From Shigella phage SP18, in the sequence record GQ981382: a DNA stretch of 64,000 nucleotides; one strand, written 5' to 3'. The notes under the pieces were generated by a model. It was not told where the DNA came from. It saw nothing but the letters and a program-made list of their open reading frames with translations, and ran no database searches. Both the position numbers and the translations under genes were made by a program. Position 1 is the first letter of the stretch. Each line of letters begins with the position of its first letter. This document shows positions 5,896 to 45,247 of this stretch, in pieces.

Positions 5896-6175
5896 AGGAA
5901 ATCACTCCTTGGTAGTTCCAGGTTTTAATAACTTCTTCATCGCTGGCAGTTGCGTACGGGACATAAACCTGAATAAGGAAACCCGTGTCATCGAAAGAGA
6001 AATAAACCGTCGGTTTGATTCCATGAATCTCAGACAATGCATAGATGTCTTTAAGGTCTTCTTCCTTACCGACAAAGAATTCCGGGTCCAGGTCACAGTC
6101 GTGGAAGTACCATTCATCACCGAACTTGTCCCATGCGGTCCAATTAGTAGCTACATATTCTTCAAAACGTTTCAT
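5876..6175 (-). CDS. Hypothetical protein (99 aa)
   Basis: ORF track. Confidence 0.45.
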   Translation of the reverse strand: MKRFEEYVATNWTAWDKFGDEWYFHDCDLDPEFFVGKEEDLKDIYALSEIHGIKPTVYFSFDDTGFLIQVYVPYATASDEEVIKTWNYQGVISCGPKLD

Positions 6176-6411
6176 TCTTTCACCTTCAGCATTTTTGCAA
6201 TGGTACTATGAATAGTCTGGATTCTTTTGTTGAATTCAGAGCTTTCGAGGCCAGGATTGGTGCTTAACCAACCGATAATAACAAACAGCAAACCAAACGG
6301 GATAGCCAGAATAAGCAGACAAACGATGAACAACACAAGCGTTATGTTTGCCAGAATATCTGCTGTAGCATTACGAAATTTATTCATATTTACCCTTAAT
6401 TGATTAACCAA
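6172..6411 (-). CDS. Small membrane protein (79 aa)
   Basis: Hydrophobic stretch LVLFIVCLLILAIPFGLLFVIIGWL. Confidence 0.45.
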   Translation of the reverse strand: MVNQLRVNMNKFRNATADILANITLVLFIVCLLILAIPFGLLFVIIGWLSTNPGLESSEFNKRIQTIHSTIAKMLKVKE

Positions 6412-6501
6412 GCATTGATAAACACTAAACTATACTGCGAATAAAATTCTGGACCAAAACGAAAAATCATATCATTTATAGTATCCATAATGTAATTCAA
6501 T

Positions 6502-6972
6502 TTAATCATGTTTCCACACCCCATCGGTATTTGACCAAAGTCGCTGATTATCTGACCCTCGCCACAGTTTTTTGGTCGGAAGATTTTTCTCATACTTCCC
6601 ATCAATAATAACATCAACATATTTAAGCATTTCTAGTTGTTTAATATCTTCAAACTTATATCCCGTCCACATCCAAATGCTTTTATTGGGATAAAGATTT
6701 TTAATAGTTTGAACCACAGAGTGAATAACATCTCGGTTATCAGGATAGAGAGGGTCTCCTCCGGTTATAGTTAATCCTTCTATATAATCATTATTCAAAC
6801 ATTCAATTAATTGTTCTAGTGTTTTACCAGTAAATGGAACACCATTTCTAGCATTCCATGTTGATTTATTATAACACCCTTCGCATTTATGCAAACAACC
6901 TGTAACGAAAAGAACGACCCTACAACCAGGGCCATTCACAAAATCACAAGGATAAATTCTATCATAATTCAT
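6502..6972 (-). CDS. nrdG: Anaerobic ribonucleotide reductase activating protein NrdG (radical SAM)
   Basis: 156 aa; CxxxCxxC-type cluster CLHKCEGCYN; directly downstream of nrdD. Confidence 0.88.
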   Translation of the reverse strand: MNYDRIYPCDFVNGPGCRVVLFVTGCLHKCEGCYNKSTWNARNGVPFTGKTLEQLIECLNNDYIEGLTITGGDPLYPDNRDVIHSVVQTIKNLYPNKSIWMWTGYKFEDIKQLEMLKYVDVIIDGKYEKNLPTKKLWRGSDNQRLWSNTDGVWKHD

Positions 6973-8786
6973 TGATGTTTAACCCTATGCATGATTTCTT
7001 TATTTTTGCCGAGATTAAATCCACGTTCGTTCGGATTCCCCAAATAGCCGCATGTTCTTCTTATTGTGTTCATCTTTTTAGGGTCAGTTTCTCCACAAAT
7101 AGAACAAACAAATCCGTTTTCAGTAGGAGTCATTTCATGGGTACTTCCACACGTAAAACATTTATCTACTGGCATATTAACACCAAAATAATCTAAATGT
7201 TGTGCAGCATAATCCCATACAGCCTCAAGACCTTTTAAGTTATTTTTCATATCAGGAAGTTCAACATAAGAAATGTGACCACCTGTTGCAATGAAATGAT
7301 ACGGTGCTTCGCGAGAAATCTTTTCAAACGGAGTAATATTTTCTTCTACTGAAACGTGGAAACTATTAGTGTACCAGCCTTTATCAGTAACATCTTTTAC
7401 ACTTCCATATTTTTCGGTATCAAGTTTACAGAAGCGATAGCACAGGTTTTCAGCAGGAGTAGAATACAAACTAAAAGCAAATCCGGTTCTTTCAGTCCAC
7501 TGCTTAAGACGAGCATTCATTTTAGTCAAAATTTCTTGTCCAATATCACGACCGACAAGAATATTCAATTCGTGAATACCAATGTATCCTAAGGACACTG
7601 AACTTCTACCGTTTTTAAATAACTCAATTATATCGTCATCGGGTTTAAGACGAACCCCGAATGCACCTTCTTGATAAAGAATAGGAGCAACAGTCGCTTT
7701 AACTCCTTTTAAGGAACTAATTCTACACATCAAAGCTTCAAAACATAAATCCATTCGCTCATTGAACAATTCAGTAAATTTCTGTTCATTGAACTGTGTT
7801 CCAATATAAGAATCTAATGCAATGCGAGGAAGATTCAGTGTTACAACACCAAGATTATTACGTCCATCAAGAATTTCATTACCAGTCGAATCTTTCCATA
7901 CGCCCAAGAAACTACGACAACCCATTGGAGAAACAGGAATAGATGAACCAGTGATAGCTTTGTTATTCTTAGCTGAAATGATATCAGGATACATTCTTTT
8001 GCTTGCACACTCTAAAGCAAGCTGCTTAATATCATAGTTTGGGTCGTCTTTATAAAGATTAACACCTTCTTCAACGAACATAACAAGTTTAGGGAAAATA
8101 GGAGTTATCCCATCACGACCAAGACCTTTAATACGATTTTTCAGAATTGCTTTCTGAATCATTCGTTCGGTCCAGTCAGTTCCGGTACCAAATGTAATTG
8201 TCACAAAAGGAGTCTGACCATTTGAGCTAAAGAGAGTATTTACTTCATATTCATAAGCTTGGAATGCATCGTATACGTCTTTTTCTGTTTTAGATTGGGC
8301 ATAATTCAACGCATCAGTGATTTGCCATTTTTCCGCGTCCTCAATATGTTTCGCATAGGTACGTTTAACATAAGGAGAAAGTACTTTATCTACATTCGCA
8401 AAAGTCGTTCCGCCATATTGATGGGAAGCAACCTGCGCAGTAATTTGTGCCATAATTGCAGTAGCAACACTGATTGATTTAGGAGTTTCAATCTGTGCAT
8501 TACCGAGTTTAAATCCGTTCTCAAGCATTCCTTTTAAATCTACTAAACAGCAATTAGTAAATGGAAGAGCAGGGGAATAATCAATATCATGGAAATGAAT
8601 AATTCCGCTTTCATGTGCTTTCATAATAAAAGACGCGACCATATTTTTGGCAATATGTTTAGATACAATACCAGCCATAAGGTCACGTTGAGTTGGAAAA
8701 ACACGAGAATCTTTATTAGCATTCTCGTTTAAAAGGTCTTTATTAGTTTTATGAATCAATCCTTCAATTTCGTTTTCAATTGTCAT
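6969..8786 (-). CDS. nrdD: Anaerobic ribonucleoside-triphosphate reductase NrdD (class III)
   Basis: 605 aa, uninterrupted; C-terminal zinc ribbon CFTCGS...CSICG and glycyl-radical region RTCGYLG. Confidence 0.93.
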   Translation of the reverse strand: MTIENEIEGLIHKTNKDLLNENANKDSRVFPTQRDLMAGIVSKHIAKNMVASFIMKAHESGIIHFHDIDYSPALPFTNCCLVDLKGMLENGFKLGNAQIETPKSISVATAIMAQITAQVASHQYGGTTFANVDKVLSPYVKRTYAKHIEDAEKWQITDALNYAQSKTEKDVYDAFQAYEYEVNTLFSSNGQTPFVTITFGTGTDWTERMIQKAILKNRIKGLGRDGITPIFPKLVMFVEEGVNLYKDDPNYDIKQLALECASKRMYPDIISAKNNKAITGSSIPVSPMGCRSFLGVWKDSTGNEILDGRNNLGVVTLNLPRIALDSYIGTQFNEQKFTELFNERMDLCFEALMCRISSLKGVKATVAPILYQEGAFGVRLKPDDDIIELFKNGRSSVSLGYIGIHELNILVGRDIGQEILTKMNARLKQWTERTGFAFSLYSTPAENLCYRFCKLDTEKYGSVKDVTDKGWYTNSFHVSVEENITPFEKISREAPYHFIATGGHISYVELPDMKNNLKGLEAVWDYAAQHLDYFGVNMPVDKCFTCGSTHEMTPTENGFVCSICGETDPKKMNTIRRTCGYLGNPNERGFNLGKNKEIMHRVKHQ

Positions 8787-21892: not shown

Positions 21893-22080
21893 TATTCTTC
21901 TACGTGCTGTTTACGTTTATTTTTATCTATAAAAGTATATTCAACATATTCACCGATATACCATTTATCAGTGTTGTGTTGACTTTTTATAGGACATTTG
22001 GTTACTCGAGTTTCGGTCCAGCGTCGAATAATTTCCGCTTTGTTTTTAGGGTCAAACGGATGTGGGTAATGTGCTTTCAT
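21868..22080 (-). CDS. Hypothetical protein (70 aa)
   Basis: ORF track. Confidence 0.4.
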   Translation of the reverse strand: MKAHYPHPFDPKNKAEIIRRWTETRVTKCPIKSQHNTDKWYIGEYVEYTFIDKNKRKQHVEEYCLKVQWL

Positions 22081-22531
22081 AATCCACCACTATTAAATCA
22101 ATGTCAGGAGTAAACATATCAATTAATTGAGATACCTTATCCCAATCACCACCAGCAATACCACAACCAATACGTGGAATATAAATTACCGGTTTAAACA
22201 AAAGGGTTTCTGCTTGTAGATTTAATTCTATCATACAATTTACTAAAGCGCCATAATCAAGATTAGGGCCTGGTTCGTATTGCGTATACAAGTTATAGCA
22301 CATGCCAAAACCTGTAGGCTTATGTTTAAAAACAATAGACATATCGCCTAATTTATCACGAGAACCGTATTCAGTAGTGGTTTTATCTATTTCTAAAACT
22401 TTTGGATAAGCCTTCGCCAACTGTCCAGCTACACCGGAACCCATTGTATGAAAGCAGTTGCAACCATGTGCAATAATATTGCCTTGAAGAAAGAGGGCGA
22501 CGATATCGCCCTTAATATACTGGGTAATCAT
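22052..22531 (-). CDS. Macro-domain protein (ADP-ribose binding/processing)
   Basis: 159 aa; Gly-rich nucleotide-binding signature HGCNCFHTMGSGVAGQLA and GCGIAGGDW typical of macro domains. Confidence 0.6.
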   Translation of the reverse strand: MITQYIKGDIVALFLQGNIIAHGCNCFHTMGSGVAGQLAKAYPKVLEIDKTTTEYGSRDKLGDMSIVFKHKPTGFGMCYNLYTQYEPGPNLDYGALVNCMIELNLQAETLLFKPVIYIPRIGCGIAGGDWDKVSQLIDMFTPDIDLIVVDYESTLPTSV

Positions 22532-22887
22532 TTAGAGTTCAATCCTCTATTATATGAATCCACTAACCTGTCAACCATACTGGTGCAGGCCGCCTTGTAT
22601 TTTGCACTTGATAGAATGCAATCCATTTCAAATAATTTCTTTTCATATTTGTTGGATAATACATTCTTTTTCAAAAGCGTATGTTCAACATCATTTTGAC
22701 CATCTTTATAGGCTGCGGTGAGCTTGGCACTGAACTGGATTATACAATCCACATTGCTTGCTGCGCAATAATCTTTAGCCGTCCTCGTTGCATATTCTAT
22801 GATGCTGTTGTTGTCGTCGCTCTGTACTGAAGCTATTCCTCCCATGCTGAATACTAACCCTATGACTAAAGTGATAACTCTTACCAT
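22528..22887 (-). CDS. Secreted/periplasmic hypothetical protein (119 aa)
   Basis: N-terminal signal-like VITLVIGLVFSMGGIASV. Confidence 0.45.
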   Translation of the reverse strand: MVRVITLVIGLVFSMGGIASVQSDDNNSIIEYATRTAKDYCAASNVDCIIQFSAKLTAAYKDGQNDVEHTLLKKNVLSNKYEKKLFEMDCILSSAKYKAACTSMVDRLVDSYNRGLNSK

Positions 22888-22889
22888 TT

Positions 22890-23432
22890 TTAATCCACCG
22901 TTTTTAATAGGCCTCGTGATTTTAAGTAGTTAGCTTTTTCTAGGACCTGTGAAGCATACTTATTACCAGCTTTCACATTCCATCCTGCGTTATATGATGA
23001 TAGCGTTTTTCTTATATCCCCCTTATGAATATTCAACCAGTATGAAAGCTCAATATAAGCCCAGCGTGCACTGTTCTCTCTCTTGCTTATCATCTTGATT
23101 ATTTCTTTATCTGTCATTGTCCACCCAACCTGTTTCACTCGTTCGCGTACGGTTGGAAGATAATTTTGGAATATACCATATGCATGATGCTTATCTTTAT
23201 TTAATCCAGTATTAACCCCAGCAGAACTTTCCTGCCAGGTTAAACCAGCCATGATATATCCCAAACCATTACGTTGGTGTGGATTTTCTTTGTACTTGCC
23301 ATTTTTCTGGAACTGTTCTCCAAACGCATAAGCATATTGAAGGTTCTCCATTTGTTCATTACTGAAAGTAGGCTCTACGCTATGGGCAGACATACTAACT
23401 GTCAATAGTAAGGTGGCGATTACTTTTTTCAT
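22890..23432 (-). CDS. Secreted lytic-transglycosylase-like (SLT-domain) protein
   Basis: Signal peptide MKKVIATLLLTVSMSAHS; SLT-like motifs ES, GIFQ and YNAG. Confidence 0.45.
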   Translation of the reverse strand: MKKVIATLLLTVSMSAHSVEPTFSNEQMENLQYAYAFGEQFQKNGKYKENPHQRNGLGYIMAGLTWQESSAGVNTGLNKDKHHAYGIFQNYLPTVRERVKQVGWTMTDKEIIKMISKRENSARWAYIELSYWLNIHKGDIRKTLSSYNAGWNVKAGNKYASQVLEKANYLKSRGLLKTVD

Positions 23433-23442
23433 GAATTCCCCA

Positions 23443-23901
23443 TTAGATATAAATCACTTTTGTGCTAATTTTTCCTTCCAGACGATTAGAGTTAACAAAC
23501 GCCATACGACAACACATGGTTGGAGACTTCCCAGGAATAGCTGGATTAACTGTCATTCCTAACCATAGGTTCTTGTCTGTGATTTCCAGACGAAGTGGAC
23601 GGTAGTTCACATTCGGGTCAATTTGTGCTTCAACTTCCGGGAGTGGTTTCATCTCCAGGAATTCAACGATTTCTTTTACATGTGGTGTGATTTTTCCAAA
23701 CAAGTCAAAAACATATTGTTCATCAATTTCACGTTGGATTGCACGGTCCAATAGGTGTGGACTGTACTTAATGAAGAATACTTCAAGGCCTGCTTCTTTA
23801 CAAGCCTTGTTGATAGCATTATTAATTTTGAGGAACTCCGTTTCAAAAATGCGACGAAGTTTATTGCGGCGAATGTAAACACTTGAATCGATAGTAGTCA
23901 T
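23443..23901 (-). CDS. regB: RegB site-specific endoribonuclease
   Basis: From internal Met: MTTIDSSVYIRRNKLRRIFETEF...YSPHLLDRAIQREIDEQYVFDLF...RLEITDKNLWLG...CCRMA matches recalled T4 RegB; GGAG ribosome site before ATG 23901. Confidence 0.85.
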   Translation of the reverse strand: MTTIDSSVYIRRNKLRRIFETEFLKINNAINKACKEAGLEVFFIKYSPHLLDRAIQREIDEQYVFDLFGKITPHVKEIVEFLEMKPLPEVEAQIDPNVNYRPLRLEITDKNLWLGMTVNPAIPGKSPTMCCRMAFVNSNRLEGKISTKVIYI

Positions 23902-23950
23902 GATTATCTCCTTTTGTTTGATGGGATAATCATAACTCATTTCAATCTGC
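23902..23950 (-). promoter_or_regulatory. Early-promoter cassette (PeSL-like) upstream of regB
   Basis: gtttgatgggataatcat...cttgtacactac shared core. Confidence 0.4.
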
Positions 23951-23957
23951 TTGTACA

Positions 23958-24537
<580 letters not shown>

Positions 24538-27198: not shown

Positions 27199-27687
27199 CT
27201 AATATGCGTCAAAAGTTCCAGTACGGAAAGTTTCGATAACTCGTTTGGCTCGGTTCGGAGTCTGGACTTTATACCATCTCGAGTCGGCCAGTTCCTTAGC
27301 GGCGGCTTCCCATGATTTAGCCTTCAGCAATCGCATACCCTTAGGAAAACCAGCAACACCAGCAACACCCATCTGGAATACCATATTAATGAGCGCACAC
27401 CGACGGACTTCATCCAGTACATCATAAACAGGTTTTAAGACAGGATGCCTCAAGATTCCAGCTTTAGCCTTTTCGACCGAACGGTTAAACAGTGTTTCAG
27501 CTTCGTGCTGGGTTATACGGCCATTACAGACACGACCCATGAGCTTGTCGAGCTCGGCACGAGCAACATCTTTTGATGGGTTCTTAGTTATCAGTTGCCC
27601 GATACCAATGGTCCAAAAGCCTTCGGTATCTTTATACAAATCCAACTTACAACCTTCATCTATGCGTAACATTTCGAATATATTCAT
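27199..27687 (-). CDS. e: Endolysin (T4 lysozyme e)
   Basis: 162 aa; [58 protein letters not shown] match recalled T4 lysozyme. Confidence 0.93.
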
Positions 27688-41541: not shown

Positions 41542-42375
41542 TTATGAATTTCTCCAAACTTTTTGTGCAGAGAATTTTTTGCCTTTGCTGTAAAAAGCTT
41601 GCAACGGAAGCATAACAACGTTTGCCCAGTCACTGGGCTTGATTTCAGTGATAGTACCTTTTATATTGCCAGGTATATATGCTTTAATCATCTGGTCAGC
41701 CCCTTTAAATCCCTTCACCTTTGACCAATCAATTTTCAGATGAGTCTTGTTCGTAATCGTAGGAGTATTAGCATATTGCTTAAGAAGTTCCTCAAGGAAC
41801 TCTTGACGCGCCTTCGGCGGAATATAGTGCAAGTTCAAACCATACATCAAATTGTGCTTACCTAGCCCAAGATAAATGATTAACGGATATTTGTCCCAGT
41901 ACGGAAGAGTATCCTTATGCTTTGCATCATAGATATAAGCATAAATTTTACCCGGTTGAGGTTTAGCCGTTACGTGGCCACGAACTGATTTCTTAATTGT
42001 CTCAGCGAACCATCTGGCAGATTTGGTGTTGCTTGCTGCACCTTCGTTAGCAATCTTATCTCTTATGCTCTTTCTAAAGCTATTCACCATTATCAGCTGG
42101 CGTTCAGCCTTCGTAAGTTTACCAGCAGGTTTCTTTTTGAGTTTGGATACTTTATAAGCAGTCTGAATTCTCGAATTGTATCTTGACATGCTTTTGGTAA
42201 AGGTCGAATAGTTGATTCCTTTCTCTTCAGCAAACTTCTTCGAAGTCATTCCCTTTTCTTTTGCTGTATAAAATTCAACCCCTATCTCAACCCATTGTTG
42301 TTCGGATTTACTGGGTTTTGGACCTGGTTTATCTGCAGATTCATTGATAAATGTAAAAATACTCATCCTTTCCAT
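41542..42375 (-). CDS. 2: DNA end protector protein gp2
   Basis: 277-aa basic protein; synteny 4-2-3 as in T4. Confidence 0.75.
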
Positions 42376-42812
42376 CCTAATTTTTTCAGTGAGTTTTCAG
42401 TGATTATCCTGAACGTTATACCCATCTTATCCGCGGTAGCTTGTGCAGCTTTCCATTTGTCAGAGTTAACGCTCCAGGTGTACATTTCGTTAATAAATCT
42501 CTTTTTACTCGCAGTGGTATTATTGGCCGGTTTGGTTGGGGGTCTTGTTTCTTTTAATGGCTTAACTTCGAAAAAGAACTGCTGTCCTGTATCGAACTTA
42601 ACCCAGAAATCCATATAATATCTGCGCTTTTTACCTTCAGCATTGCAGAAGTATGGAATAATCACAGTCTCAGAGCCCCATTGAACAACGTTCGGATGGT
42701 TGTCGAGCCATCTCATCAACCAAGCCTCCCAGCTTGACCGGTATTGTATTTTCTTCCAGTCGCCCTTATATTTTTCTATGTTGGTGGGCTTGAATTTCCC
42801 GGAGTATGCCAT
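42363..42812 (-). CDS. 4: Head completion protein gp4
   Basis: 149 aa; synteny; late promoter and GGAGG immediately upstream. Confidence 0.8.
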
Positions 42813-42860: not shown

Positions 42861-43463
42861 ATGCTTTTTTCATTTTTTAACCCTATTGATTATGATGCGA
42901 AAACAATCAGAAAAAACTCGGCATCATTGACGAAAGAAGATGTCTTAAGCATTCCAATGACTGACATCTTCAGAAACTACCGCGCTTATTTCGATAAGGT
43001 CGCTGCTAATTATACACCCAAAACCTATTACATTGCAGGAGCTCCGAGACCCGAAGAATTGGCATATCAGCTCTATGGTAACACACAACTCTATTGGGTT
43101 CTCCTGATGATTAATGACATCTATGACCCTTATTATGGTTGGCTTGGTTCTCAGGAATCATCCTATCAGGCATCTATTCAGAAATATTCGAATGTCGGTG
43201 GTAACCAGGTCCTTTATCATGTGAATGAAGATGGTGAGAAGTTCTGGAACCTTGTATCTTATCCTGATAATCCATACACCTGGTACGATAAAGGTGATAA
43301 GAACAAATTATACCCGCAGTATGAAGGTCCATTAGCTGCAGTGGATATCTATGAAGATGCTATCCGTAAAAATGAATACAAACGCGAAATAAAAATAATT
43401 GACCCGGAAGACATTGAGTCATTTATTTCCGCGCTTATCCGTGAAATGGAGAAGGCTTTATGA
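42861..43463 (+). CDS. 53: Baseplate wedge protein gp53
   Basis: MLFSFFNPIDYDAKTI...MTDIFRNYRAYF...GNTQLYWVLLMINDIYDPYYGW matches recalled T4 gp53; ATG at 42861 rather than the TTG at 42831. Confidence 0.88.
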   Translation: MLFSFFNPIDYDAKTIRKNSASLTKEDVLSIPMTDIFRNYRAYFDKVAANYTPKTYYIAGAPRPEELAYQLYGNTQLYWVLLMINDIYDPYYGWLGSQESSYQASIQKYSNVGGNQVLYHVNEDGEKFWNLVSYPDNPYTWYDKGDKNKLYPQYEGPLAAVDIYEDAIRKNEYKREIKIIDPEDIESFISALIREMEKAL

Positions 43464-45247
43464 TTAATATGTCAGATAATGTAAGTTGGTTCGTCGGGGT
43501 TGTCGAAGACCGAATGGACCCACTTCAGCAAGGTCGTGTGCGTGTTCGTGTATGGGGTATGCATCCATATGAGAAAGCACAAGGGCCTGTTAAAGGTATC
43601 AGAACCGAAGACCTTCCTTGGATGTCTGTATTGATGCCGACATCATCTGCATCAGTTTCTGGGATTCAAACTGCCATGACTGGTATGGTCCCAGGTACTC
43701 AAGTATATGGTCACTTTTTAGACAAGTGGAAGCTCAACGGTCTTGTTATTGGTACGTATGGTTCAGCCTCAAGACAAAAGGCAAATCCTAACGAAGGCTT
43801 CTCTGACCCTACAGGACAATACCCGCTTTATGTTGGTAATGATGCTGCAGCGCTTAACCGTGGCGGTGAAGTCGGTTATGATGCAACTTCGAACGTAATT
43901 CAGGATGCGAACCTTGACCTTGGTATTAACCCAGATGGTCTTGATTTGAGCCAGGTTAAGCCTGATGATAATCCTAATTTCACAATTGAAAATATGCTCC
44001 ACCGTGATGAAGGTCTTCGACTGAAGGTATATTGGGACACCGAAGGTTATCCTACTATAGGCATAGGACACTTAATTGCACCACAACCTATTAGAGATAT
44101 GAATCAGATAAACAAAATATTATCTAATCAAATAGGCCGTGAAGTTAAAGGTAACCCTGGTGCAATATCAATGGACGAGGCTTCTAAGTTATTCCAAGAA
44201 GACCTTAAAAAAGTCCAAAACGATATAGGTAGGCATAGTGTTGTGGGTCCGGTTTATAATAAAGAAAACCGTTCGAGACAAATGGCTCTTGAAAACATGG
44301 CTTTCCAAATGGGATTAGGTGGATTGGCTAAATTCCGTGGAATGCTTAGCGCAATGTTAGTAGGTGATTATAAAAAAGCATTTGAGGAAGCTCGTAATTC
44401 AGTATGGTTTAACCAAACTAAAGGACGTGCATCAAGGGTATCAATGATTATCCTTACCGGTAATATGGAATCATATGGTATTATGGCTCCTAAAGAAAGG
44501 TCATTTAAAGGGCGTTCATATAGGATGATTCAAACCTTTGCAGCCCCTGCAAATTCTGACCCAGCCGACCCATGGACTCCAGAAGATACACGGATTCTAT
44601 TTAAAGAGCCAGAATCAAGTTACAAGGGCGAATATCCTTACGTGCAGACAATGCAAACTGAAGGCGGTCATATTCAGGAATTCGATAACACCCCTGGACA
44701 AGAACGTTATCGACTGATTCACCCAACCGGTTCCTACGAGGAAGTTGCACCAGATGGTCGTAAGACTTCGAAGACAGTGGCCGATGGTTATTATATGACC
44801 CAGGGTGATTCGAGTACTTACGTTGGTGGTAATAATAAAGTCAACGTTGGCGGTGATGAAACCTATTATAATATGGCTAATGTTCGTCGTCAGACCGATG
44901 GAAACGAAAGCATTCATATTCGTGGGAATGAAACCAAAACTGTAGAAGGTAATGGAACTTTGCTTGTTAAAGGAAATGTTAAAATAGTTATTATGGGTAC
45001 TGCTGATATAACTGTTGAACAAGAAGCATATATTACGGTTGAAAAAGATACAACAGTTAATGTCAACCAGAATGCAGATATAAGTGTTAAACAAAAGGCC
45101 ACAATCAATGCTCAAAATATGGATGTAAATGTCGAACAAGATTTAAATTTTGCAGCGACGAACATTAATTTAAACGCATCAAATACTGTGCATATGGATG
45201 GTGGTTCATTAGCTAAAGTATCTGGTGGCAACGTACAGGTCGGTTAA
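43460..45247 (+). CDS. 5: Baseplate hub subunit and tail lysozyme gp5
   Basis: 595 aa; N-terminal VGVVEDRMDPLQQGRVRVRVWGMHPYEKAQGP, lysozyme domain DEGLRLKVYWDTEGYPTIGIGHLI, C-terminal repetitive beta-helix region. Confidence 0.93.
   Translation: MINMSDNVSWFVGVVEDRMDPLQQGRVRVRVWGMHPYEKAQGPVKGIRTEDLPWMSVLMPTSSASVSGIQTAMTGMVPGTQVYGHFLDKWKLNGLVIGTYGSASRQKANPNEGFSDPTGQYPLYVGNDAAALNRGGEVGYDATSNVIQDANLDLGINPDGLDLSQVKPDDNPNFTIENMLHRDEGLRLKVYWDTEGYPTIGIGHLIAPQPIRDMNQINKILSNQIGREVKGNPGAISMDEASKLFQEDLKKVQNDIGRHSVVGPVYNKENRSRQMALENMAFQMGLGGLAKFRGMLSAMLVGDYKKAFEEARNSVWFNQTKGRASRVSMIILTGNMESYGIMAPKERSFKGRSYRMIQTFAAPANSDPADPWTPEDTRILFKEPESSYKGEYPYVQTMQTEGGHIQEFDNTPGQERYRLIHPTGSYEEVAPDGRKTSKTVADGYYMTQGDSSTYVGGNNKVNVGGDETYYNMANVRRQTDGNESIHIRGNETKTVEGNGTLLVKGNVKIVIMGTADITVEQEAYITVEKDTTVNVNQNADISVKQKATINAQNMDVNVEQDLNFAATNINLNASNTVHMDGGSLAKVSGGNVQVG

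Follow-up and report, generated by a model that had tools for sequence, protein, structure and literature searches.

Phage gene vs.1 probably encodes a Sec-exported, periplasmic lytic transglycosylase of the SLT/GH23 family

We analyzed a 64,000-nucleotide stretch of DNA from Shigella phage SP18 (sequence record GQ981382; hereafter the window). A single ORF with an ATG start occupies exactly positions 22890..23432 on the minus strand, and encodes 180 residues followed by a stop codon (22890-22892, minus strand, checked by script). In BLASTP, the product aligns over its full length with ORF 61.4 (Vs.1) of phage T4 at 66% identity (E=2e-89), and residues 1-178 match PHROG 600 (E=9e-68). The upstream neighbor is regB (23443..23958, minus strand; Pfam REGB_T4 E=4.6e-72 and the VR7 annotation), and a Shine-Dalgarno-like GGGG (23437..23440, minus strand) is located directly past the regB stop, 5 nt 5' of the ATG. 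Downstream, vs (22528..22887, minus strand; PHROG 1256), annotated as 'valyl-tRNA synthetase modifier', begins 2 nt past the stop of the ORF, with the junction GAT TAA AA ATG. Since regB is the upstream neighbor, the synteny is fixed as regB–vs.1–vs–tk.4, an order common to the window, the T4 record, and the annotated VR7 record. The regB–tk.4 block shares 98.5% nucleotide identity with Escherichia phage 212. Sequence and gene order identify the ORF as vs.1, orthologous to T4 vs.1 (ORF 61.4) and carried by a T4-like (Gaprivervirus/VR7-like) phage. T4 Vs.1, an 'uncharacterized 20.7 kDa protein' of PHROG 600, has the signal peptide and all the motifs described below in common with the window protein, and the divergence between the two is merely that typical between genera (Tequatrovirus and Gaprivervirus-like). 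The vs.1/vs junction differs, with a 2 nt gap in the window and an 8 nt overlap in T4. The original prediction did not recognize the gene as T4 vs.1, whose resemblance to SLT was reported by Nolan et al. in 2006. The SLT match of vs.1 is already known from that publication, and databases carry the name.

The N-terminus of the product was judged by heuristics alone, namely the layout of the n-, h-, and c-regions and Kyte-Doolittle hydropathy. Residues 1-18, MKKVIATLLLTVSMSAHS (23379..23432, minus strand), form a predicted Sec (SPase I) signal peptide. K2 and K3 constitute a positive n-region, the 13 residues V4-A16 form an h-region within the usual 7-15 residues (mean Kyte-Doolittle value of 2.39 for the best 10 residues), and A16 and S18 are the small residues at positions -3 and -1, with predicted cleavage after A16-H17-S18. 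This layout is found in 122 of the 143 Met-starting family members, though the N-terminal sequence varies. The AlphaFold2 (AF2) model has low confidence over the signal peptide, with block means of 61 and 65. After the signal peptide, the product has no second hydrophobic segment (maximum hydropathy 1.26), and the mean hydropathy of its 19-residue windows never exceeds 1.12. The predicted mature periplasmic protein (residues 19-180; 22893..23378, minus strand) has 162 residues, a computed mass of 18.7 kDa, a pI of 9.5, and no Cys. Since there is no Cys, the product has no lipobox, and we rejected the idea that it is a lipoprotein. A SAR-domain reading was likewise rejected, since the h-region, flanked by K3 and H17/E20, lacks the length of a membrane span or SAR domain and is followed by the A-x-S motif. 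We infer that the product would be cleaved and exported to the periplasm by Sec, in agreement with the original description of a 180-residue protein bearing a signal peptide.

Pfam SLT (PF01464) matches residues 60-158 of the product with 14.9 bits (E=0.02), which is below the gathering threshold of 21.3 bits, and T4 Vs.1 clears this threshold with 25.1 bits. SLT is also matched by 43 of 47 close and 85 of 147 distant relatives (E<=0.01, best 2.2e-10), with no competing Pfam family among the SLT-matching relatives. A word-indexed search detected 90 homologs at E<=4e-31, and an exhaustive search detected 479 cluster representatives at E<=1e-3. By tblastn, matches were obtained in 2068 of 50,697 phage records and in none of 72,556 plasmids, and a conjugation or T4SS-type origin of vs.1 was therefore rejected. 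Against the PDB, the single sequence gave only a chance RuBisCO match, and a profile of 47 sequences gave marginal matches (goose lysozyme, E~1); a search of NCBIfam with the product gave nothing meaningful. The link to the PDB became significant only with a 147-sequence profile (A2) built from the exhaustive search, which matched EtgA (PDB 8urn) with E=4e-6 over all four motifs and goose-type lysozymes with E values of 0.07-0.35. The family profile and the transitive evidence thus support the predicted membership of vs.1 in SLT/GH23.

The AF2 model of the product, with a mean pLDDT of 85.7, places E68 in a helix (residues 58-74) preceding a β-hairpin (residues 84-90); it is poor over residues 74-78, the loop that follows the catalytic helix. 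The first 15 PDB matches ranked by Foldseek comprise only MltD, Slt/Slt70, and g-type lysozymes (probability 0.57-0.99), with weak E values (0.065-1) and modest TM scores (0.41-0.51 on a query including the signal peptide). The matches in BFVD are vs.1 homologs and 'LT_GEWL'/SLT proteins. Since no single Foldseek score is decisive, the fold call rests on the consistent top matches together with the profile alignment, and a lysozyme-like α+β fold is supported for the modelled protein. The product almost certainly has the fold and active site of a lytic transglycosylase. The original designation as lytic-transglycosylase-like is borne out by the profile match to EtgA, the T4 ortholog above the SLT cut-off, and the fold matches to MltD and Slt.

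The SLT/goose-lysozyme-like catalytic domain, delimited by Pfam SLT, the family profile, and Foldseek, covers approximately residues 58-172 (22917..23261, minus strand, as are the motifs that follow). Motif I is E68-S69 (23226..23231), in which E68 would serve as the only catalytic acid/base. Motif II, G86-I-F-Q89 (23166..23177), is the equivalent of GLMQ and lines up with GIMQ in EtgA and with GLMQ in goose lysozyme. Motif III, Y147-N-A-G150 (22983..22994), is the equivalent of AYNAG and is aligned to YNAG of EtgA and the goose lysozymes; with the preceding Ser, SYNAG spans residues 146-150. The motif IV Tyr, Y159 (22956..22958), is aligned to the Tyr of 'YA' in the same enzymes. Conservation was counted over 147 diverged members of the vs.1 family. 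E68, Y147, G150, and Y159 are each present in 147/147, and position 69 is Ser or Thr in all 147. G86 is retained in 143 and N148 in 128 of the 147 members, and position 89 is Gln in 82 and His in 48. Down to ~25% identity, S69, G72, G86, W132, and S146 are near-invariant in the relatives. The family also has features of its own, consisting of an N-terminal helix with F23..Q27..Y35..G38 (Q27 in 144/147) and the residues E128/W132. The ES, GIFQ, and YNAG stretches originally read as SLT-like motifs are located at E68-S69, 86-89, and 147-150.

In the profile alignment to solved structures, E68 aligns to Glu73 of goose lysozyme (GEWL) and to the Glu of the ES motif of EtgA, and the catalytic Glu on which the original prediction turned is present here and in all 147 diverged relatives. 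No second catalytic carboxylate aligns in the family. Asp86 of GEWL sits in an insertion missing from the vs.1 family, and Asp97 aligns to Y91. The Asp of YDIG in EtgA (Asn in entry 4xp8), its catalytically important Asp60, aligns to A84, a position occupied by Asp in only 24 of the 147 family members. Since none of these carboxylates has an aligned counterpart, a transglycosylase is favored over a hydrolase.

The family 1 lytic transglycosylases (E. coli Slt70, P. aeruginosa Slt and MltD) have the same four motifs and a single catalytic Glu in E-S. The solved members share ~15% identity with the product, which is devoid of the superhelical, LysM, or lipid-anchor modules of cellular lytic transglycosylases. 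EtgA, the lytic transglycosylase of EPEC type III secretion (8urn, 4xp8), is the best solved sequence relative of the vs.1 family. Both proteins are small, single-domain, and exported (predicted for Vs.1), and their ES, GxxQ, YNAG, and motif IV Tyr are aligned, but EtgA carries the YDIG Asp where the vs.1 product has A84. The gene for EtgA belongs to a secretion-system locus, and the rod protein activates the enzyme. Unlike EtgA, VirB1, and the P19 type, whose genes are in loci of trans-envelope machines, vs.1 is located in a phage pre-replicative gene block. GEWL (PDB 153l, 1gbs, 3gxk; ~185 aa) is alike in size and fold and has the Glu73/E68 pair, YNAG, and the C-terminal Tyr in common with the product; since the equivalents of its Asp86 and Asp97 are missing, hydrolytic chemistry is not expected.

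The window also encodes the e lysozyme (27199-27687, minus strand) and gp5 (43460-45247, plus strand), both identified by Pfam Phage_lysozyme. Neither shows any BLASTP similarity to the vs.1 product. The e lysozyme and the lysozyme domain of gp5 (GH24) act on the same glycosidic bond as the predicted target of the vs.1 product but belong to a different family. The e lysozyme stays in the cytoplasm up to holin triggering, and gp5 belongs to the virion. Unlike both, the vs.1 product carries its own predicted export signal. A third peptidoglycan-active protein in the window beside these two is thus supported, and its separateness from the endolysin and the gp5 lysozyme, as originally proposed, holds at the level of both BLASTP and Pfam family. 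Another small early T4 protein with a signal peptide, Spackle, likewise acts in the periplasm, on chemistry related to peptidoglycan (PMC7677548). Spackle inhibits gp5 lysozyme and is not an enzyme, whereas the vs.1 product is a predicted enzyme.

A scan for promoters and terminators performed no better than on shuffled sequence. No exact copy of the T4 late-promoter motif, TATAAATA, lies near vs.1, and the frequency of this motif in the window equals chance. Since the count of this motif is at chance level, the timing of vs.1 rests on published T4 data, in which vs.1 RNA is early and the protein, detected by proteomics, is classed as middle (PMC9697503). This timing fits the original suggestion of export during infection, with export itself being a prediction.

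Transposon insertions in T4 vs.1 are tolerated at 46 of 52 sites, and the gene is scored as 'Non-essential'. In liquid culture, the insertion mutants are ~10-fold under-represented relative to neighboring genes, and on the clinical strain CFE299 they are significantly depleted (log2FC -1.20, adjusted p 0.015). Knock-down of T4 vs.1 with dCas13d was scored as 'Semi-Fit'. Polarity on vs, the next gene downstream, which overlaps vs.1 in T4 and gives a similar picture, could account for these fitness effects. In two recent genome-wide screens of T4, vs.1 is listed among the genes of unknown function, and its effect on fitness is mild. Gene e is nearly free of insertions in the transposon library (mean 2.5 reads per site) while vs.1 is intact. 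Since gene e is still needed under these conditions, Vs.1 is no substitute for the endolysin. Our literature searches for the enzymology, localization, or clean deletion of Vs.1, or for a study dedicated to it, found none.

We consider it likely that vs.1 encodes a Sec-exported periplasmic lytic transglycosylase of the GH23/SLT type, acting as an accessory enzyme and not as the lysis enzyme. By analogy with T4 and from the shared synteny, vs.1 would be transcribed with the pre-replicative regB–vs.1–vs–tk.4 block. Sec would export the product and free it into the periplasm as a soluble basic enzyme, as its N-terminus and composition suggest. A groove lined by GIFQ, SYNAG, and Y159 may bind glycan strands of the sacculus, as judged from the alignment to solved relatives. 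E68, as the single acid/base, would then cut the MurNAc-β-1,4-GlcNAc bond and leave a 1,6-anhydroMurNAc end, a chemistry suggested by the absence of the second carboxylate. As an outcome, the wall of the infected cell may be remodelled or thinned to a limited extent, which would raise phage fitness without being required. T4 makes this predicted wall-cutting protein before the late phase. Homologs of vs.1 are found in ~4% of sequenced phage records, on top of any endolysin and virion lysozyme that these phages encode; the carriers, from Straboviridae, Ackermannviridae, and Ounavirinae, are virulent myoviruses of large size. The predicted active site (E68 and no second carboxylate) gives the T4 vs.1 phenotypes a testable biochemical handle, and Vs.1 offers a defined target for asking how infected cells hold the wall intact yet primed for lysis.

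Other readings concern either the chemistry or the role of Vs.1. The roles originally suggested, in superinfection, lysis timing, or periplasm remodelling, find neither support nor contradiction in our analysis. A true muramidase, that is, a hydrolase like goose-type lysozyme, appears quite improbable: the GEWL Asp86/Asp97 and EtgA YDIG Asp positions are non-acidic (insertion absent, Y91, and A84), and Pfam puts the vs.1 relatives in SLT, even though goose-type lysozymes rank high in both the fold and the profile comparisons and the family-specific acidic E128 is kept in 128/147. The position of the window protein under the Pfam SLT cut-off might point instead to a dead peptidoglycan-binding protein. 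However, the invariance of the catalytic Glu and motif residues in the 147 diverged members implies that catalysis is under selection. A variant of this idea, in which a membrane anchor or SAR domain takes the place of a cleaved signal peptide, is opposed by the 13-residue h-region and the A-x-S cleavage motif, and we regard both forms as very unlikely. A more plausible but still rather unlikely role for an active Vs.1 is that of an auxiliary lysis or lysis-timing enzyme. It would build up in the periplasm early or in the middle period and nick glycan strands, so that the wall fails faster once holin T releases the e lysozyme or so that lysis works on endolysin-resistant walls. The predicted cut at the endolysin's bond, from the periplasmic side and before holin triggering, is consistent with such a role, as are the mild fitness cost of T4 vs.1 insertions and two gene orders in other phages, alc–vs.1-like–i-spanin–o-spanin–pseT in Nanhuvirus and rIIA–rIIB–vs.1-like–pseT–x–i/o-spanin in Ounavirinae. 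On the other hand, vs.1 is not near t, e, or the spanin genes in the window or in T4, and in Ackermannviridae, Slopekvirus, and Ishigurovirus it is flanked by genes for nucleotide metabolism or by unknowns. The requirement for gene e despite an intact vs.1 also argues against it, and no lysis phenotype has been reported for vs.1.

EtgA, VirB1, and FlgJ are specialized transglycosylases that make space for secretion systems and flagella. By pure analogy, Vs.1 might open local gaps in the sacculus that let phage assemblies across the periplasm form, either the spanin complex or the periplasmic domains of the holin and antiholin. The secretion-system-dedicated EtgA is the best solved relative of the family (E=4e-6), the product is small, single-domain, and predicted to be exported like the specialized enzymes, and a vs.1-like gene adjoins spanin genes in two unrelated phage groups. 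Such linkage is not seen in T4-type genomes, no partner-binding element was identified in the product, and the 72,556 plasmids, where secretion-associated enzymes abound, hold 0 homologs; we consider this function improbable. Compared with these alternatives, the accessory lytic transglycosylase remains our preferred reading of vs.1.

The downstream gene raises the possibility that Vs.1 acts in a pair with Vs, both being exported and Vs serving as a periplasmic partner, regulator, or inhibitor, comparable to Spackle acting on gp5 lysozyme. The vs ATG is only 2 nt beyond the vs.1 stop in the window and the genes overlap by 8 nt in T4, the four conserved Cys of Vs are placed to staple two helical hairpins, and T4 mutants with insertions in either gene are ~10-fold under-represented and lose ground in M9 glucose. 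Such a pairing nevertheless seems unlikely. The shared phenotypes of vs and vs.1 insertions may be due to polarity, and the structural matches of the Vs model include neither Spackle nor any lysozyme inhibitor. Furthermore, Vs homologs occur in only 798 phage records versus 2068 for Vs.1, so that Vs.1 mostly functions in the absence of Vs. In classical studies, Vs was assigned to valyl-tRNA synthetase. In an extended form that we hold to be quite doubtful, vs.1 and vs would encode a co-translated exported pair, a transglycosylase and a disulfide-stapled four-helix partner, that conditions the envelope of the infected cell and matters most in minimal medium and clinical hosts; the label 'valyl-tRNA synthetase modifier' would then reflect a secondary property of Vs, or an association that arises once cells are broken, and not where Vs acts. 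As a candidate Spackle-like or other known lysozyme inhibitor, Vs was rejected on the basis of AF2 and Foldseek, which returned generic helical-bundle noise (E>=1.5). In its AF2 model, Vs forms a bundle of four helices, and the N-terminus is disordered. In alignments, Vs also looks exported, with a signal-peptide-like N-terminus and four conserved Cys.

The minus-strand ORF at 22890..23432 (ATG start, 180 codons plus stop) is the known gene vs.1, since its neighbours fix its identity. regB (Pfam REGB_T4, E=4.6e-72) is the 5' neighbour, vs (PHROG 1256) lies on the 3' side, and the macro-domain gene tk.4 follows in the same block, 3' of both. This 2.3 kb block recurs with 98.5% identity in Escherichia phage 212 and with about 91% in phage VR7 (Gaprivervirus), whose annotation calls the gene vs.1. 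Vs.1 shares 66% full-length identity with T4 ORF 61.4 (= vs.1) and matches PHROG 600 ("unknown function", E=9e-68). A Shine-Dalgarno-like GGGG is located 5 nt 5' of the vs.1 ATG, directly past the regB stop codon. The mechanical ORF of regB itself (23443-23958, minus strand) comprises 171 aa from a GTG start. Since the REGB_T4 profile aligns from residue 23 onwards and VR7 regB is annotated with 152 aa, the true start is probably an internal ATG (MTTIDSS...) near 23901. In the window, the T4 tk.4 ortholog occupies 22052-22531 (minus strand; Pfam Macro, E=5e-8). A 2025 preprint gives tk.4 the name AdfM, as an anti-DarT2 factor; many records still list it as "phosphatase" or hypothetical.

Neither vs.1 nor its SLT resemblance is new. 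For 6/6 T4-like phages, Nolan et al. (2006) described the match to SLT as "marginally significant" and referred to PSI-BLAST matches obtained earlier for T4, and UniProt-derived names of homologues, like some GenBank records, already read "Transglycosylase SLT domain-containing protein". Our literature search found no enzymology or localisation study of Vs.1.

The family evidence, not the single sequence, settles the SLT-likeness of Vs.1. Alone, the protein scores 14.9 bits (E=0.02) against Pfam SLT, below the cut-off of 21.3, and retrieves nothing from the PDB or NCBIfam. T4 Vs.1 reaches 25.1 bits, above the cut-off, and SLT is matched at E<=0.01 by 43 of 47 close and 85 of 147 diverged homologues; no other family recurs in either set. 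The 147, with identity down to about 25%, form the conservation alignment and come from 479 cluster representatives found at E<=1e-3 by exhaustive profile search. E68, Y147, G150, and Y159 (22956-22958) are invariant among them, and S/T69, G72, G86, W132, S146, and Q27 nearly so. The motifs named in the original prediction are all present in the 180-aa protein, with the register checked by script, as for Y159: ES (E68-S69, 23226-23231), GIFQ (residues 86-89, 23166-23177), and YNAG (147-150, 22983-22994), all on the minus strand. The 147-member profile finds EtgA (8urn), a transglycosylase of solved structure, at E=4e-6 with all four motifs covered; goose-type lysozymes come next. Because E68 is conserved in the family and aligns to goose lysozyme Glu73, the catalytic glutamate on which the prediction depended is present.

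The AlphaFold2 model of Vs.1 (pLDDT 85.7) places E68 within helix 58-74, which precedes a short beta-hairpin (84-90). In a Foldseek search of the PDB, MltD, Slt/Slt70, and g-type lysozymes fill all of the top 15 places, at probabilities of up to 0.99, with weak E-values (0.065-1) and TM-scores of 0.41-0.51. Among predicted viral structures, the model retrieves 'LT_GEWL'/SLT proteins as well as homologues of vs.1.

GH23 lytic transglycosylases are characterised by a single-carboxylate site. Asp86 of goose lysozyme lies inside an insertion that the Vs.1 family is without, and Asp97 aligns to Y91. The Asp of the EtgA YDIG motif, the catalytically important Asp60, is replaced by Asn in entry 4xp8 and has A84 as its counterpart in Vs.1. 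Of the 147 members, 78 have Ser at position 84, 37 have Ala, and only 24 have Asp. Judged from these alignments, and subject to where the Vs.1-family-specific E128 (128/147) lies in the fold, the apparent single-carboxylate site of Vs.1 favours a putative non-hydrolytic, lytic transglycosylase cleavage.

The N-terminus, MKKVIATLLLTVSMSAHS, is built like a cleavable Sec signal peptide, as had been proposed: a pair of lysines is followed by a hydrophobic core of 13 residues and by A-x-S ahead of the predicted cut. The N-terminus contains no cysteine, and Vs.1 has no second hydrophobic segment. The predicted mature protein is Cys-free, with 162 aa, a computed mass of 18.7 kDa, and a pI of 9.5. 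The e lysozyme (endolysin; 27199-27687, minus strand) and gp5 (43460-45247, plus strand) both carry Pfam Phage_lysozyme and, each compared with Vs.1, show no similarity to it, so its description as a third, separate peptidoglycan-active protein is fair. A 149-aa ORF adjoining gp53 and gp5 (42363-42812, minus strand), presumably at the position of T4 gene 4, matches Pfam Tn7_TnsA-like_N, a TnsA-like endonuclease N-terminal domain (E=2.4e-21).

The original observation is thus confirmed and its SLT-like interpretation supported. We consider it likely that Vs.1 is an accessory wall remodeller of the pre-late phase, which would be exported via Sec as a soluble protein and would cleave the wall as a single-Glu GH23 lytic transglycosylase. 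The T4 vs.1 transcript is early; its protein product was detected and classed as middle. Knock-down with dCas13d scored T4 vs.1 as "Semi-Fit", and the authors placed it among genes "of purely unknown function". A T4 transposon library tolerated insertions at 46/52 vs.1 sites ("Non-essential"). Insertions in liquid LB averaged 22.6 reads per site for vs.1 and 26.6 for vs, against 180-650 for regB, tk.4, and vs.3. On the uropathogenic strain CFE299, vs.1 was among 11 significantly depleted genes (log2FC -1.20, adjusted p 0.015); M9 glucose gave a downward trend (log2FC -0.87, adjusted p 0.155), and vs was the strongest hit in that medium. The vs.1 insertion effects may be polar on vs.

Among candidate roles, auxiliary lysis or wall pre-conditioning ranks first, as a tentative proposal. 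Gene e was nearly without insertions in the T4 transposon library, which makes Vs.1 no replacement for the endolysin. The vs.1-like gene of Nanhuvirus (Cronobacter phage LPCS28; locus L002, 3468-4650) lies between alc and the two spanin genes, i-spanin and o-spanin, with which it is directly contiguous. In Ounavirinae (Felix O1-like; loci L003 and L006), it lies between rIIB and pseT, with spanins two genes away. This recurrent, not universal, proximity weakly hints at a link to envelope disruption. A role in making space for trans-envelope complexes of the phage appears improbable, and a two-protein module with Vs equally so. Vs (22528-22887, minus strand), whose ATG follows the vs.1 stop after 2 nt in the window, resembles a disulfide-bonded protein exported to the periplasm: its variable, hydrophobic N-terminus is of signal-peptide type (MVRVITLVIGLVFSMGGIASVQS in the window; MTKILVLCIGLISFSASASA in T4, with ASASA at its end and then a charged stretch), four cysteines (C41, C48, C90, and C101) are conserved, and the C-terminus SMVDRLVDSYNRGL is almost invariant. 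AF2 models Vs as a bundle of four helices behind a disordered N-terminus, with the cysteines where helix 1 meets helix 2 and helix 3 meets helix 4; the model finds no fold match in the PDB. Vs is universally annotated as "valyl-tRNA synthetase modifier", and its exported look is odd for a protein that would partner a cytoplasmic enzyme.

By tblastn, Vs.1 homologues occur in 2068 of 50,697 phage records and in none of 72,556 plasmids; carriers among the records inspected belong to Straboviridae, Ackermannviridae, and Ounavirinae/Felixounavirus. At the loci inspected, vs.1-like genes always lie amid pre-replicative or nucleotide-metabolism genes. In several GenBank records, among them Salmonella phage kage (locus L004, 3456-4073) and match records H26, H57, H69, H73, and H76, the homologue is called "RegB" or "endoribonuclease", as it is under some UniRef names. 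Since Pfam assigns the kage protein to SLT (21.6 bits) rather than to REGB_T4, the name is an annotation-transfer error from the adjoining gene. Enterohepatic Helicobacter carry a cellular, chromosomal branch of the family (6001-6996 of loci L009-L011, from H. fennelliae and metagenome contigs), mostly annotated as hypothetical. In H. fennelliae, the gene lies outside any prophage, between tRNA-synthetase genes of glyS and alaS type (Pfam), and the Helicobacter protein has a lipobox-like LVGC near its N-terminus and a long low-complexity C-terminal tail.
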